Source of the DNA: Escherichia coli
GTDB lineage: Bacteria > Pseudomonadota > Gammaproteobacteria > Enterobacterales > Enterobacteriaceae
Assembly: GCF_002854065.1 (NCBI RefSeq)
Contig: NZ_CP024147.1
Reading direction: 5' to 3' (one strand)
Length of the DNA: 64,000 nucleotides
Part shown: positions 3,205 to 41,722 of the stretch, one piece after another
Layout: every line of letters begins with the position of its first letter
Position numbering within the stretch: position 1 is the stretch's first letter
Program-made: the position numbers and the translations under genes
Notes under the pieces: model-generated
Databases searched by the model: none
What the model was told of the DNA's origin: nothing
Seen by the model: the letters and a program-made list of their open reading frames with translations, nothing else

Positions 3205-3938
3205 TCAAACAAACTTTTGTCGCGTTGCTTTTGAGTGTGGGAGCGTCATCGGTCTTCGCGGCAGGAACCGTCAAGGTGTTCAGCAATGGCAGCAGTGAGG
3301 CCAAAACACTAACAGGCGCAGAGCATTTAATCGATCTGGTAGGCCAACCGCGGCTGGCAAACAGCTGGTGGCCCGGTGCGGTGATCAGCGAAGAGCTGGC
3401 AACGGCGGCAGCATTGCGTCAGCAGCAGGCGTTGCTGACACGGCTGGCAGAACTGGCCGCAGACTCCAGCGCTGACGATGCCGCTGCGATTAACGCCTTA
3501 CGCCAGCAAATTCAGGCGTTGAAAGTGACGGGCAGGCAAAAAATCAATCTTGATCCCGATATCGTCCGCGTTGCTGAACGCGCTAACCCGCCGTTGCAGG
3601 GCAACTACACGCTGTGGGTCGGACCACCACCGTCCACGGTCACGTTGTTCGGGCTTATCAGCCGTCCTGGCTATCAGCCATTCACTCCCGGTCGCGACGT
3701 GGCGAGCTATCTCTCCGGGCAAAGTCTGCTTAGCGGTGCGGATCGTAGCTACGCGTGGGTGGTTTACCCGGACGGACGCACACAAAAAGCGCCGGTGGCT
3801 TACTGGAACAAGCGTCACGTAGAGCCGATGCCCGGCAGCATTATTTATGTTGGCCTCGCGGACTCCATCTGGAGTGAGATGCCTGATGCCCTTAACGCCG
3901 ACATTCTTCAGACTCTGACGCAGCGGATACCTCAATAA
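3201..3938 (+). CDS. yjbG: periplasmic protein YjbG
   Basis: Track ORF 3105..3938; start at [20 protein letters not shown] (signal peptide), ATGA overlap with yjbF stop; 245 aa. Confidence 0.88.
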
Positions 3939-6034
3939 TGAAAAAAAGACATCTGCTTAGCTTACTGGCGCTGGGCATTAGCACAGCTTGCTACGGCGAA
4001 ACATATCCTGCGCCCATTGGTCCGTCGCAGTCGGATTTCGGTGGCGTAGGATTATTACAAACGCCCACCGCGCGTATGGCACGGGAAGGGGAGTTGAGTC
4101 TGAACTATCGCGATAACGATCAGTACCGTTATTACTCAGCTTCAGTGCAACTCTTCCCGTGGCTGGAAACAACGCTGCGCTACACCGACGTGCGCACCCG
4201 GCAGTACAGCAGCGTCGAAGCGTTCTCTGGCGATCAAACGTATAAAGATAAAGCCTTCGATCTCAAACTGCGTTTGTGGGAAGAGAGTTATTGGCTGCCG
4301 CAAGTGGCGGTTGGTGCGCGGGATATCGGCGGTACGGGGCTGTTTGATGCGGAATATCTTGTTGCCAGCAAAGCCTGGGGACCGTTCGATTTTACGCTCG
4401 GCCTGGGCTGGGGATATCTGGGCACCAGCGGTAATGTGAAAAATCCGCTCTGTTCAGCCAGTGATAAATATTGCTATCGCGATAACAGCTACAAACAGGC
4501 GGGATCTATCGACGGTAGCCAGATGTTCCACGGTCCTGCCTCACTGTTTGGCGGCGTGGAATACCAGACGCCCTGGCAACCGCTGCGCCTGAAACTGGAG
4601 TATGAAGGCAATAATTATCAGCAGGATTTTGCCGGTAAGCTGGAGCAAAAAAGTAAGTTTAACGTCGGGGCGATTTATCGCGTTACCGATTGGGCCGACG
4701 TTAACCTTAGCTATGAACGTGGCAACACCTTTATGTTTGGCGTCACGCTGCGCACCAACTTTAACGATCTGCGCCCGTCTTACAACGATAACGCCCGCCC
4801 GCAATATCAACCGCAGCCGCAGGATGCCATTTTGCAGCATTCGGTGGTGGCGAATCAGTTAACGCTGTTGAAATACAATGCCGGACTTGCCGATCCGCAG
4901 ATCCAGGCGAAAGGCGATACGCTGTATGTTACCGGCGAGCAGGTGAAATATCGTGATTCGCGCGAAGGGATCATCCGTGCTAATCGGATCGTGATGAACG
5001 ATCTGCCGGATGGGATCAAGACGATCCGCGTTACGGAAAATCGCCTTAACATGCCACAGGTGACGACGGAAACGGATGTCGCCAGCCTGAAGAATCATCT
5101 CGCCGGAGAGCCGTTGGGCCACGAAACGACGCTGGCGCAAAAACGCGTCGAGCCAGTGGTTCCGCAGTCCACCGAGCAGGGCTGGTATATCGACAAATCG
5201 CGCTTTGATTTCCATATCGATCCGGTGCTGAACCAGTCGGTCGGTGGCCCGGAAAACTTTTACATGTATCAGCTGGGCGTGATGGGAACGGCAGATTTGT
5301 GGCTGACGGACCATCTGCTCACCACCGGCAGCCTGTTTGCAAATCTTGCCAACAACTACGACAAGTTTAACTACACCAATCCGCCGCAGGACTCGCACTT
5401 ACCGCGCGTTCGTACCCATGTGCGCGAGTATGTGCAGAACGATGTCTATGTGAATAACCTGCAAGCCAACTACTTCCAGCATCTGGGCAACGGCTTCTAC
5501 GGTCAGGTCTACGGAGGTTATCTCGAAACCATGTTTGGCGGTGCGGGGGCAGAAGTGTTGTATCGCCCGCTGGACAGCAACTGGGCGTTTGGTCTGGATG
5601 CCAACTACGTTAAACAGCGCGACTGGCGTAGTGCAAAGGATATGATGAAATTCACCGACTACAGCGTGAAAACCGGACATCTGACCGCCTACTGGACGCC
5701 ATCTTTCGCTCAGGATGTGTTAGTTAAAGCCAGCGTCGGGCAGTATCTGGCAGGGGATAAAGGCGGCACGCTGGAGATCGCTAAACGCTTTGACAGCGGC
5801 GTGGTGGTGGGCGGCTATGCCACGATCACCAACGTTTCGAAAGAGGAGTACGGCGAAGGGGACTTCACCAAGGGCGTGTATGTCTCGGTACCGTTGGATC
5901 TCTTCTCGTCTGGCCCGACACGCAGCCGTGCGGCGATTGGCTGGACGCCGCTGACGCGTGACGGTGGTCAGCAACTTGGGCGTAAGTTCCAGTTGTATGA
6001 CATGACCAGCGACCGTAGCGTCAATTTCCGCTAA
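3938..6034 (+). CDS. yjbH: outer-membrane beta-barrel/lipoprotein YjbH
   Basis: 698-aa [23 protein letters not shown]...; start overlaps yjbG stop (TAATG). Confidence 0.92.
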
Positions 6035-6080
6035 GTCATGGGAAAGGTGCCAGTTTTCGCAATCACTGGCACCCTCATTC

Positions 6081-6359
6081 TTAATGGCCTGTTGAGCCAT
6101 CAGGAACGCAGTTCACCCCCGGTTTGCGATCTGGTGTGTAAAGGCGAAAACATTCTGTCTTCCTGTCCGTCGATATCGGTTGCAGGTCTGGTTGCCTGAG
6201 CGACTGGGCCATCATTGGGCTGGAGACATTGCTTTGCGGTAGGTCGGCTTTATCAGCAGTACCGAGCGGACCAGCATAAGCAGGAAGAACAGAGACTGAT
6301 AACATCAAAGCAGCAAAATAAGGCTTCATTTTTACCACCTTTATCAGGTTATGTTTCAT
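6081..6359 (-). CDS. yjbT: small putative periplasmic protein
   Basis: 92-aa ORF with internal signal-peptide-like segment MKPYFAALMLSVSVLPAYA; position between yjbH and psiE as in K-12 (from memory). Confidence 0.6.
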   Translation of the reverse strand: MKHNLIKVVKMKPYFAALMLSVSVLPAYAGPLGTADKADLPQSNVSSPMMAQSLRQPDLQPISTDRKTECFRLYTPDRKPGVNCVPDGSTGH

Positions 6360-6460
6360 TTGTTCCAGAGGAACATTGTCGATTTTTCGCGCATTGCTGG
6401 TGGCTGGGAATCACCTGAATGGGTGATTTTTGAATTACCGGCTTTGGTGCGGTTTGTCTT

Positions 6461-6505
6461 GCCGGATGCGCCGCCAGGCGCGGCTTATCCGGCCTACGGG
6501 TAGGT
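6461..6505. repeat. REP element
   Basis: gccggatgcgccgccaggcgcggcttatccggcctac palindrome. Confidence 0.75.
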
Positions 6506-6628
6506 ATATCCGGCTTTGGTGGAGGCGCGCTCCAAATCCAGGTTGAACAAAAAATACACAAAAAATATAGATCTCCGTCACATTTTTGCGTTATACAGGA
6601 AGCTCGCCACTGTGAAGGAGGTACTGCT

Positions 6629-7039
6629 ATGACGTCACTCTCTCGTCCGCGCGTGGAGTTTATCTCCACCATTTTGCAGACCGTACTCAATCTTGGCCTG
6701 CTGTGCCTCGGCCTGATTTTGGTTGTCTTCCTCGGCAAAGAAACGGTGCATCTGGCTGATGTGCTGTTCGCGCCAGAACAAACCAGCAAATATGAGCTGG
6801 TAGAAGGACTGGTGGTTTACTTTCTCTATTTCGAATTTATCGCGCTGATTGTGAAGTACTTTCAGTCCGGTTTTCACTTCCCGCTACGTTACTTTGTCTA
6901 TATTGGGATCACCGCCATTGTGCGCTTGATCATCGTCGATCATAAATCGCCACTGGATGTGTTGATCTACTCGGCTGCGATCCTGTTACTGGTGATCACC
7001 CTGTGGCTGTGTAATTCGAAACGGCTGAAGCGGGAGTAA
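6629..7039 (+). CDS. psiE: phosphate-starvation-inducible inner membrane protein PsiE
   Basis: 136-aa [32 protein letters not shown]... matches PsiE; RBS gaaggagg upstream. Confidence 0.93.
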
Positions 7040-7082
7040 AAAGACAGCACGCCGAACTGGCGCGGCGTGCTGGACAGGAAGA

Positions 7083-8558
7083 TTACAGCGTAGCAGTTTG
7101 TTGTGTTTTCTTCGTTTCCGGTTCCCAGAGGGCTTCCAGCTCCTCAAGGGTTTTACCTTTGGTTTCCGGGACAAATTTCCACATAAATAGTGCTGCCAGA
7201 ACGCCCATACACCCGTAAATCCAGTAGGAGAAACCGTTGTGGAAATGGGCCACCAGCCAGGAGTTTTTGTCCATCATCGGGAAGGTCCAGGAGACGAAGT
7301 AGTTCGCCAGCCACTGGGCCGCCACCGCGATTGCCAGCGCTTTACCACGAATGGCATTCGGGAAGATTTCCGACAGCAGAACCCAGCATACCGGACCCCA
7401 GGACATGGCAAAGGCGGCAACATAGAACAGCATCGACAGTAGCGCCACAATACCCGGTGCCTGAGTGTAAAACGCGGTACCGAGGCTAAACATACCGATT
7501 GCCATTCCGAGCGCGCCGATAATTTGCAGTGGCTTACGACCAAATTTATCCACCGTCATAATTGCCAGAACGGTGAAGGTGAGGTTGATAACTCCGACAA
7601 TAATGGTCTGCAAAAGCGCGATATCCGTGCTGGCCCCCAGCGTTTTGAACACTTCCGGCGCGTAGTACAGCACCACATTGATGCCGACAAATTGCTGGAA
7701 GATGGAGAGCATAACGCCGATGACAATCACGCCCACGCCAAACATCAGCAGACGACCACCGGTTTTGCGGCCATGATCCAGAGAGTGTTTAATTTCCTGT
7801 ACTGCCTGAGTTGCAAGCGTGTTGCCCATAATTTTGCGCAGGATACCTTCCGCCTGTTCTTGCTTGCCGCGTGACATCAGCCAGCGAGGACTTTCTGGCA
7901 CGGTATACAGCAGCATTAAGAACAGCAGTGCAGGGATACATTCCGAGGCAAACATATAACGCCAGCCGTCAGTATTCAGCCAGCTGGCATCACCGGAACG
8001 GGCAATAAAATAGTTTACGCAGTAAACTAAAAGTTGCCCGAAAATAATCGCAAACTGGTTAAAAGAGACCAGTTTCCCGCGAATATGAGCTGGAGCCAGT
8101 TCCGCAATATACATTGGCGAGAGCATTGAGGCTAAACCAACGCCAATACCGCCAATAATGCGATAAATAACAAATTCCGGGACATAACCTGCCAGATAAA
8201 CAGGCACTGTGTTGTCCGGGTTTATAGAGGTAAAACCAAGTTCTGGCCAGGCAGAACCTACACCAGAAATAAAAAACAGGACAGCAGCAATCTTAAGTGA
8301 ATCACGACGACCGAAGCGGTTACTGCAATAACCACCGAGGGCACCGCCGATGATGCAACCAATCAGAGCGCTGGCCACGCAAAACCCTAACAGGGAGTTG
8401 GCAGCGGATTCACTTAAGTTTTGTGGAGCAACAAAGACGGTATTGAGTGACTCAACAGTACCGGAAATAACGGCGGTGTCGTAGCCAAATAATAAACCAC
8501 CTAATGTAGCGACTAAGGTAATCGAAAATATATAACTGGAATTATACTGGGTATTCAT
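7083..8558 (-). CDS. xylE: D-xylose:H+ symporter (MFS sugar porter)
   Basis: 491-aa ORF MNTQYNSSYIFSITLVATLGGLLFGYDTAVISG... matches XylE. Confidence 0.95.
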   Translation of the reverse strand: MNTQYNSSYIFSITLVATLGGLLFGYDTAVISGTVESLNTVFVAPQNLSESAANSLLGFCVASALIGCIIGGALGGYCSNRFGRRDSLKIAAVLFFISGVGSAWPELGFTSINPDNTVPVYLAGYVPEFVIYRIIGGIGVGLASMLSPMYIAELAPAHIRGKLVSFNQFAIIFGQLLVYCVNYFIARSGDASWLNTDGWRYMFASECIPALLFLMLLYTVPESPRWLMSRGKQEQAEGILRKIMGNTLATQAVQEIKHSLDHGRKTGGRLLMFGVGVIVIGVMLSIFQQFVGINVVLYYAPEVFKTLGASTDIALLQTIIVGVINLTFTVLAIMTVDKFGRKPLQIIGALGMAIGMFSLGTAFYTQAPGIVALLSMLFYVAAFAMSWGPVCWVLLSEIFPNAIRGKALAIAVAAQWLANYFVSWTFPMMDKNSWLVAHFHNGFSYWIYGCMGVLAALFMWKFVPETKGKTLEELEALWEPETKKTQQTATL

Positions 8559-9834: not shown

Positions 9835-11379
9835 TTAATCAAACTTCATTCGCGTGGCTTTCAGGTTCACTATCGCCAGCGCACCCACCAGCAGGAAGAT
9901 CAGCGTGGCAATTGCTGCTGCCAGACCGAAGTCCTGACCCCCGCCGCCTTCAAAAGCGATGCGGTAGGTGTAGTTAACAAGCAGGTCGGTATAACCGGCT
10001 GGCGTGGTCGTGCCAAGACGATCCGGGCCGCCGTTGGTTAACAGTTGAATCAGCACGAAGTTGTTAAAGTTAAAGGCGAAGCTGGCGATCATCAGCGGCG
10101 TCAGCGGTTTAATCAGCAGCGGCAGCGTAATCTTAAAGAAGTTCTGGAACGGACCTGCACCATCCATTGCTGAGGCTTCATACAAATCGTCCGGAATCGC
10201 TTTCAGCAAGCCCATGCAGAGGATCATCATGTACGGATAGCCCAGCCAGGTATTGACGATAATCAACATCGTTCGGGCGGTGGTCGGATCGCTGAACCAG
10301 GCGGGCTTCACGCCAAACAGCGCGCTCAACATCATGTTGATCTCACCGAAGCTCTGGTTAAACAACCCTTTGAAAATCAAGATTGAAATGAACGATGGCA
10401 CCGCGTAGGGCAGAATCAGCAGGACGCGATAGACCGCTTTGCCGCGCAACGCTTCCCACTGCACCAGACACGCCAGAACCATGCCGACTGCCACCGTTAA
10501 AAAGACAGTGATCAGCGAGAACACCACGGTCCAGACGAAAATGGCGAGGAACGGTTTCTGAATGCCTTCGTCGGTGAAGACGCGAGTAAAGTTTTTCCAG
10601 CCGGTGGTCACGGTGTAACCGGGGCTTAGCTTTTCATCACCCCAGTTGCCGTCGGCGGTAATGGACTGGTAAAAGCCAATTTGGTTATTCGGACGATATT
10701 TCACGCCGCTCTGATTATTCGTCAACGTGCCGTCACCGTCGAGTGTGTAGAGCGGCTGCGTGCCAGAAAACTGGCGCAGGGAGCTCATCATCACTTTGTT
10801 GCCATCCGGCAGAATGGCGGTAATGTCACTCAGCGCCTGACGATTCTGGGTAATCACGCGTAGATTTACGCGTTCGCCTTCGGGCTGGGCGGTCGTTTCT
10901 TTCAGTTGCAGTTTTTGCTCTCCGCCAAATTTAAAAGCGTCGGAGAGGTAATTTTTGCCGGTTTCGCCGTCGCTGAGCGCCAGTTGCCACTCATCGCCCG
11001 CCGGGTAAAGACCAAAGTTATAGGTTTTGCCTGCTTGCCAGGAGCGATCTAACAACACTTCCTGTGCACGTTCAAAAGTCAGCTGGTTAGTGCTGCTGTA
11101 GTTGGTGAAGGCAATGGCGATGGTGCAGACCAGAGGGAAGAGGACGAATAATCCCATTCCAGCCATTCCCGGGTAAACATAGCGCCAGGCGTAGGCTTTA
11201 CGATTGGCGAAAATATACAGCCCCGCTGAACTCAATATCAGCGTGGTAATGGCGAACAGGTATTCCCCTTGTGCGTACATTAAAACAACAAGGTAACCCA
11301 CCAGCAGGCCGAGCAGACCTAACACTGACCATTTCAGCGCGTCGCTTTGCCACCAATGTTTCTTTTTAATGACATCCAT
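9835..11379 (-). CDS. malF: maltose ABC transporter permease MalF
   Basis: Track ORF 9835..11394; start at [17 protein letters not shown] gives 514 aa matching MalF. Confidence 0.95.
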
Positions 11380-41294: not shown

Positions 41295-41722
41295 CAAACA
41301 ATTCCTCTGAAAAGAGCCGATGCCCTGGACAGCGCGGCGTTGTTCACGGGAGGCGTGGTACACTCTGGCTATCGCGGGGCTTGCAGAACACAAAAATGAA
41401 ACACTCTGTTTGTTTCATTAATTTTGTGAACTATATCACAATTGATTGTTTGTTAGCCATATTAGGCCGTGACTTTTATTGCTGTACAGATTATGTGGTT
41501 TTTCAGTGGCATTAAGGGTATATCTTCCCGCCGCCTCTGTATTCCTGTAGAAAATTAATTTTGAATATCAATGAATTATTTTCATCCAGGTGACGATTAA
41601 AAAGGTATCAATTTCAAATCAGGCAAAAGTGCTATTTATACCGTAAGATTTATCTAAAGACGTCGGTAGCCAGGGTTTCACCTTGCAATGGCCGGGTATA
41701 AACAGGCAGGAAATTGATAGCA

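Follow-up and report, generated by a model that had tools for sequence, protein, structure and literature searches.

The bases at 6564-6585, immediately upstream of psiE, probably form a composite operator in which a CRP site and a very weak Pho box share the 7-mer CCGTCAC, with the partner of this 7-mer in the Pho box lying upstream of it. The bases are a documented CRP repressor site, and CCGTCAC is the sole recognisable PhoB half-site in the psiE promoter. A psiE promoter with CRP and PhoB sites is already known, having been described in 2000 and being present in RegulonDB. An initial annotation of the window (the whole stretch of 64,000 nucleotides analysed here) had pointed out the string ccgtcac-attt-ttgcgtt at 6575-6592 (ccgtcac 6575-6581, attt 6582-6585, ttgcgtt 6586-6592) as a weak PhoB box, and mentioned neither the CRP site nor the ChIP evidence at psiE. 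The practical value of the present analysis is that the register of the Pho box is corrected to 6564-6585, not 6575-6592, and that the same bases are recognised as a CRP repressor site; beyond annotation hygiene this has little consequence. The only mildly new point looks to be that, judging from sequence comparison, the Pho half-site may have arisen secondarily within an older CRP operator.

The window carries the psiE promoter of E. coli

The window contains the E. coli yjbH-yjbT-psiE-xylE locus (Table 1). Positions 6300-7100 showed 100% identity to E. coli chromosomes in which psiE and the adjoining xylE are annotated, and window positions are converted to MG1655 (NC_000913.3) coordinates by an offset of +4,233,696. 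Within 6500-6640 the window differs from MG1655 by one mismatch only, at 6553 (A in the window, C in MG1655), so the K-12 literature can be used directly for 6561-6628. Both the locus annotation and the match to MG1655 confirm that the element lies in the promoter upstream of psiE, as initially annotated, and the interval given for it, 6561-6628, also takes in an A-tract, the -10, the 5' UTR and the Shine-Dalgarno sequence, up to the psiE ATG. Positions 6536-6640 are covered by all 5416 E. coli genomes, and at least 80% of 6300-7100 is covered in 3790 of the 5416; upstream of about 6544, indel variation was observed among E. coli. A REP-type palindrome, GCCGGATGCGCCGC/GCGGCTTATCCGGC, is located between yjbT and psiE (6461-6493, and 6402-6494), and an Rfam scan of 6000-7200 returned sub-threshold naRNA4 (REP-derived) matches only, which were due to the REP element at 6461-6493.

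Table 1 Features of the psiE locus in the window; negative and small positions are relative to the transcription start.
Feature	Position	Strand	Basis
yjbH	3938-6034	+	ORF
yjbT	6081-6359	-	ORF
Candidate upstream Pho box GTTGAAC-AAAA-AATACAC, -62 to -45	6542-6559	+	11-bp phase with CCGTCAC
Downstream Pho box of the literature, AATATAG-ATCT-CCGTCAC-ATTT, -40 to -19	6564-6585	+	Equivalent of the Salmonella MEME motif; geometry
CRP box ATAGATCTCCGTCACA, ATAGA-TCTCCG-TCACA, centre -29.5	6567-6582	.	Genomic SELEX
CCGTCAC, one good PhoB half-site, also part of the right half of the CRP box, -29 to -23	6575-6581	+	6/7; 7.66 bits
TTGCGTT, promoter spacer reaching the first base of the -10, -18 to -12	6586-6592	+	3/7; -9.27 bits; conservation
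-10 hexamer TATACA, -12 to -7, 7 bp upstream of the start	6592-6597	+	TATA invariant in 77 orthologues
Transcription start (MG1655 4240300)	6604	+	Alignment transfer of the experimentally inferred Salmonella start (gttatacagaaaccTcgcc)
Shine-Dalgarno GAAGGAGG in the 25-nt 5' UTR	6614-6621	+	Sequence; GA-GG core conserved
psiE coding sequence, 136 aa, ATG at 6629	6629-7039	+	ORF; psiE in E. coli genomes and MG1655 (b4030, 4240325-4240735)
xylE	7083-8558	-	ORF

The psiE promoter of Salmonella 14028s has been printed with an experimentally inferred start (...taaaaaatatagatgcccgtcacatttgtgcgttatacagaaaccTcgccgc...), and the start transferred from it deviates by at most 1 nt from that implied by the RegulonDB CRP site at 6568-6589, which is centred at -25. 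The -35 position, at 17-bp spacing, reads AGATCT, and no recognisable -35 is present. A scan of 6300-7120 for sigma-70 consensus promoters found none, a result that is uninformative for a non-consensus promoter such as this one. A full-text search of the literature for strings of the promoter sequence gave unrelated primer matches only.

The -10 region at 6587-6597 reads TG-N2-TTATACA, and CTATACA is found in many genera. The sigma-S type of -10 is TGN0-2CYATAMT, and the likeness of CTATACA to it could contribute to the large PhoB-independent induction of psiE by phosphate (Pi) starvation in strain EDL933. A narrow literature search for RpoS as the cause of this induction gave no direct test on psiE.

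CCGTCAC is the only recognisable PhoB half-site

Candidate sites were scored with two PhoB matrices, one built from the 59 PhoB ChIP-seq sites in Table 1 of Fitzgerald et al. 2023 (training range 6.56-23.84 bits, median 15.3) and one from the 12 sites of the Yuan matrix (training range 13.65-21.91), and with a half-site matrix pooled from the 59 ChIP-seq sites, on which true half-sites have a median of 7.55 bits and the weakest half-site in any ChIP-bound site has -1.47. CCGTCAC was initially described as a good first repeat, and rightly so: it matches CTGTCAY at 6/7 positions, CGTCACA (6576-6582) scores 7.66 bits, which is at the level of the true half-site median and is equalled or exceeded at 0.07% of the positions in the window, and CCGTCAC is the conserved 7-mer of the psiE Pho box that served as a canonical input in a Salmonella study. 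Matches to CTGTCAY with at most one mismatch are expected 1.2 times by chance in the 270-bp region. TTGCGTT, which had been taken for a degenerate second repeat, proved to be no repeat at all, with 3/7 consensus matches and -9.27 bits for TGCGTTA, a random level that is reached by 31% of window positions.

As a whole Pho box, 6575-6592 is at chance level. Against the 18-bp consensus the 18-mer has 11/18 matching positions, for which chance alone would give 2.1 occurrences over both strands of 270 bp. Its ChIP-seq matrix score of 1.84 bits places it 427th among 127,966 window positions, so that about 1.8 equal or better matches are expected by chance in the 270-bp upstream region, and its Yuan matrix score is -2.6. 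The word "weak" was well chosen; 1.84 bits compares with a training minimum of 6.56. The register 6564-6585 scores 0.70 bits on the ChIP-seq matrix and +0.41 on the Yuan matrix. The low score of 0.70 arises because the upstream half, ATATAGA, has -11.16 bits, which is random-level, and the upstream partner AATATAG matches the consensus at 1/7 positions. Two CTGTCAT-like repeats at 11-bp periodicity were not found, CCGTCAC alone qualifying, and in both registers the scores on the two matrices fall below those of all sites known to be bound in vivo that went into them.

The best intergenic match to the PhoB matrix, GGTAATTCAAAAATCACC at 6422-6439 on the minus strand (5.86 bits), was rejected as a PhoB site: its score falls short of the training minimum, chance alone would yield about 0.4 matches as good, and it is located upstream of the REP element and outside the conserved block described below. 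The matrix itself predicts occupancy poorly, because strong matches in the window have no ChIP-seq peak in Table 1 of Fitzgerald et al. These are 50802-50830 (-), which consists of two overlapping 11-bp phased matches of 14.55 and 13.85 bits, far above psiE (14.5 bits for 50802-50819), and 5985-6002 (-) at the 3' end of yjbH, with 11.6 bits (16.7 on the Yuan matrix). The window also contains the intragenic malF PhoB ChIP-seq site of Fitzgerald et al., TGTCATTAAAAAGAAACA, at 11358-11375 (-), with its MG1655 peak at 4245063.

Promoter geometry places the partner of CCGTCAC upstream

With 0.70 versus 1.84 bits the matrix does not discriminate between the two registers, and the register was therefore chosen by geometry and published assignments. 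In TSS-annotated Salmonella sequences the proximal Pho repeat occupies -29 to -23 in phoB and -30 to -24 in pstS, and psiE CCGTCAC occupies -29 to -23. Taken as the proximal repeat, CCGTCAC thus has the position expected of a Pho box, whose proximal repeat replaces the -35 and has its end at -23 or -24, some 10 bp before the -10; in the register 6575-6592 the proximal repeat would end at -12. Because CCGTCAC is at the phoB and pstS proximal position, it is best read as the last repeat, with its partner upstream (AATATAG-ATCT, -40 to -30). A Salmonella study reported the psiE motif as AATATAGATGC followed by CCGTCAC and ATTT, at -44 from the ATG and with CCGTCAC as the second repeat, a call made by MEME and not by footprinting. 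The half-site CCGTCAC had therefore been located correctly by the initial annotation, but the register was off by one 11-bp repeat. The mapped site lies elsewhere only in half: the published box at 6564-6585 overlaps the flagged string by 11 bp (6575-6585) and extends 11 bp upstream of it, not downstream.

Further upstream of CCGTCAC, the 7-mers in 11-bp phase are AATATAG (6564), AATACAC (6553; CATACAC in K-12) and GTTGAAC (6542). The candidate upstream Pho box at 6542-6559 scores 3.74 bits in the register 6543-6560, below the training minimum of 6.56, with half-sites of -0.12 and 1.74 bits, and is poorly conserved beyond close genera. The single-nucleotide difference at 6553 falls in this candidate, changing CATACAC (4/7 to the consensus, K-12) into AATACAC (3/7, window). 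The original study of the promoter reportedly described two pho boxes, located near and upstream of the -35, of which the downstream one is overlapped by the CRP site. Later literature credits Kim et al. 2000 with multiple direct repeats for PhoB at psiE, and the same paper (J Bacteriol 182:5596) is cited elsewhere for dual PhoB/CRP control of psiE. A possible second weak box at 6542-6559 would fit the multiple repeats so credited, and we infer that they correspond to it.

The same bases form a CRP repressor site

RegulonDB gives a CRP repressor site, TAGATCTCCGTCACATTTTTGC (6568-6589), as "psiE repressor -25", which is reproduced in Shimada et al. 2011, and the Genomic SELEX table of the latter lists the psiE box ATAGATCTCCGTCACA with psiE among the known CRP targets that were found again. 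The 22-mer 6564-6585 agrees with AAATGTGATCTAGATCACATTT, the CRP consensus, at 15/22 positions, which is the tied second-best match in the 64-kb window, with 0.013 such matches expected in 270 bp. Every one of the three best CRP matches in the window (41422, 6564 and 35662) is a Genomic SELEX box; 41422-41443 is the yjcB/yjcC box TGTGAACTATATCACA and 35662-35683 the yjbS/aphA box TATGCGCAAGATCACA. The right half of the psiE box matches at 5/5 positions and the left half, ATAGA, at 2/5. The key positions G4 and C13 singled out by Shimada et al. 2011 are both present, inside the invariant AGAT and TCAC columns of the alignment. Three features expected of a CRP site were observed at psiE, namely a 16-bp TGTGA-N6-TCACA box with G4 and C13, published binding at these very bases, and conservation in orthologues.

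A Dam site, GATC at 6570-6573 (part of AGATCT), lies within the CRP/PhoB operator and is kept in nearly all 77 orthologues. Genera with the GATCAC state, which is presumed to be ancestral, have two GATC sites (AGATCTGGATCA).

CRP-likeness, and not Pho-likeness, is family-wide

To compare orthologous promoters, psiE loci were collected from 80 species genomes, and alignment of the 150 nt upstream of the ATG yielded 77 distinct sequences. The sole strongly conserved upstream block in the 77 promoters spans about 6560-6598 (AAAAATrTAGATCnnnrTCACAtTTtTGCGyTATACAg), with AGAT, TCAC and TATA invariant. At the aligned site 12-18 of the 22 CRP-consensus positions are matched in 77/77 promoters. Within the psiE gene tree, one clade has CCGTCAC or CTGTCAC at 6575-6581. 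Its members are Escherichia, Citrobacter, Enterobacter, Lelliottia, Leclercia, Silvania, Trabulsiella and Huaxiibacter, to which Salmonella is added on the basis of a published sequence; CTGTCAC was found in 15/77 aligned promoters, mostly Citrobacter. GGATCAC or AGATCAC is present in the deeper branches (Klebsiella, Raoultella, Kluyvera, Kosakonia, Mangrovibacter, Shimwellia, Cedecea, Pseudescherichia, Pseudocitrobacter and Phytobacter), and Pluralibacter gergoviae is the lone exception to this split. In genera with (A/G)GATCACA the CRP match is 15-18/22 and the Pho half-site scores 2.8-4.0 bits; in the C(C/T)GTCACA clade the CRP match is 12-15/22 and the Pho half-site scores 7.7-10.1 bits. 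CRP-likeness is therefore family-wide and Pho-likeness is not. TTGCG(T/C)T never moves towards CTGTCAT and is equally conserved with or without the GTCAC half-site, which makes it more likely to be core promoter than a PhoB contact.

These patterns tentatively raise the possibility, which we consider rather doubtful, that the psiE PhoB half-site is a lineage-specific, derived overlay on an older CRP operator; the clade split was taken from a single-gene, midpoint-rooted NJ tree and is a lead only. If true, psiE would have joined the Pho regulon by means of one half-site, gained through a change of one or two bases, and a derived half-site would explain the disagreement between studies on the membership of psiE in this regulon.

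Published in vivo evidence for PhoB at psiE is conflicting

Fitzgerald et al. 2023 observed no PhoB ChIP-seq signal at psiE, stated that an earlier ChIP-chip study had none either, and concluded that psiE is unlikely to be a PhoB target. In their RNA-seq of MG1655, psiE had counts of 4237/5239 in the wild type versus 2500/3622 in delta-phoB (1.5-fold, log2 0.6, q = 0.064, not significant). The cells had been grown in glucose at 0.2 mM Pi, and the FLAG-tagged PhoB was partly functional, being about 8-fold impaired at pstS. The delta-phoB counts show that psiE is well expressed without PhoB, so its promoter is not strictly activator-dependent and fires without this regulator. In EDL933 at 1 uM Pi, low-Pi induction of psiE was 20.8-fold and PhoB-dependence 3.1-fold. 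In P-starved Salmonella psiE was among the PhoB-dependent transcripts with a change of at least 4-fold; it is included, with a value of 2.15 (units not checked), in a microarray list of genes differentially expressed between MG1655 and a phoB knockout, and in a pst mutant of APEC its expression was raised 1.84-fold. The initial annotation expected a PhoB site because psiE is phosphate-starvation-inducible; no ChIP signal was seen there, and the expression data are mixed.

A composite operator and the alternatives to it

In the composite operator that we favour, psiE would be transcribed from 6604 with TATACA as the -10 and no usable -35. By binding at about -25 to -30, cAMP-CRP would block access to the -35 region and the PhoB site and so act as a repressor; CRP repression of psiE is documented in RegulonDB. 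The right half of the CRP site, CCGTCAC, would also serve PhoB, as the promoter-proximal repeat in a very weak Pho box. PhoB~P at -40 to -23, possibly aided by a second dimer at -62 to -45, would replace the -35 through sigma-70 region 4, a contact that is established for Pho promoters and that we infer for psiE in vivo by analogy. TTGCGTT would serve as promoter spacer adjoining the -10 and make no contact with PhoB. As only one repeat is recognisable, affinity for PhoB is expected to be low, and one good half-site at the canonical position without a recognisable partner predicts both a low affinity and a pattern that depends on the study. PhoB occupancy and PhoB-dependence may then be seen only when phosphate starvation is severe and PhoB~P is high, and may be missed by ChIP. 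Such a low-affinity, condition-dependent site would reconcile the reported in vitro protection and the PhoB-dependent expression of some studies with the missing ChIP signal of others.

The closest competitor, which we regard as unlikely, is an operator for CRP only (or for another factor reading AGATC-N-GATCACA), in which the PhoB half-site is fortuitous and phosphate and PhoB act on psiE indirectly, for instance by stabilising RpoS or changing cAMP. It would account for the lack of PhoB occupancy in two genome-wide studies and of significant regulation in the MG1655 RNA-seq, for a matrix score far under that of every bound PhoB site, and for the family-wide conservation of CRP-likeness and not of Pho-likeness; it also suits EDL933, where the Pi induction is mostly not PhoB-dependent and iraP/RpoS are implicated in that condition. 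It leaves unexplained, however, why the half-site sits exactly at the canonical -29 to -23 and improves to a perfect CTGTCAC in one clade, and why PhoB-dependent expression was found in four independent data sets (EDL933, APEC, Salmonella and the MG1655 list). The in vitro protection of psiE by PhoB that Kim and co-workers reportedly observed in 2000, with indirect support in citing papers, also argues against it.

The 18-bp Pho box at 6575-6592, with CCGTCAC first and TTGCGTT as a degenerate second repeat, is highly improbable. Its 11/18 matches and 1.84 bits are marginally above the literature register, owing to the A/T-rich TTTT spacer, but its second repeat is random-level and equally conserved in genera that do not have the GTCAC half-site, it would span -29 to -12 and touch the -10 where the proximal repeat of phoB and pstS ends at -23 or -24, and the published motif has the partner upstream. 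A chance resemblance devoid of regulatory meaning has next to no probability: the Pho-box match by itself is at chance level, but 6560-6598 is the sole strongly conserved psiE upstream block in 77 Enterobacteriaceae promoters and coincides with experimental CRP binding, so that conservation together with the SELEX and RegulonDB data rules this reading out.

Comparison with known promoters

The element in the window is the same as that in the psiE promoter of E. coli K-12 (RegulonDB psiEp), with the CRP repressor site on the same bases, and differs from it by the one SNP in the upstream candidate repeat. In phoB, pstS and phoA, 11-bp phased CTGTCAT-like repeats replace the -35 and end proximally at -23 or -24, exactly where psiE has CCGTCAC. 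The boxes of these three genes consist of two good repeats and reach 15-24 bits on the ChIP-seq matrix, whereas psiE has one good repeat and 0.7-1.8 bits; canonical Pho promoters have strong ChIP-seq peaks and more than 100-fold regulation, whereas psiE has no peak and 1.5- to 4-fold regulation. The Pho box of phnC (ATTAACCAAATCGTCACA) is similar in that its proximal half, CGTCACA, is identical to psiE 6576-6582 and its upstream half is weak. The phnC upstream half, ATTAACC, is still recognisable, however, and the box is ChIP-bound with about 2,500-fold regulation, in contrast to the random-level ATATAGA of psiE. With CRP repressor sites that overlap core promoters, the psiE site shares one perfect half, G4 and C13, and a centre at -25 to -30 over the -35; it differs from them in its poor left half and in doubling as a half-site for a response regulator.
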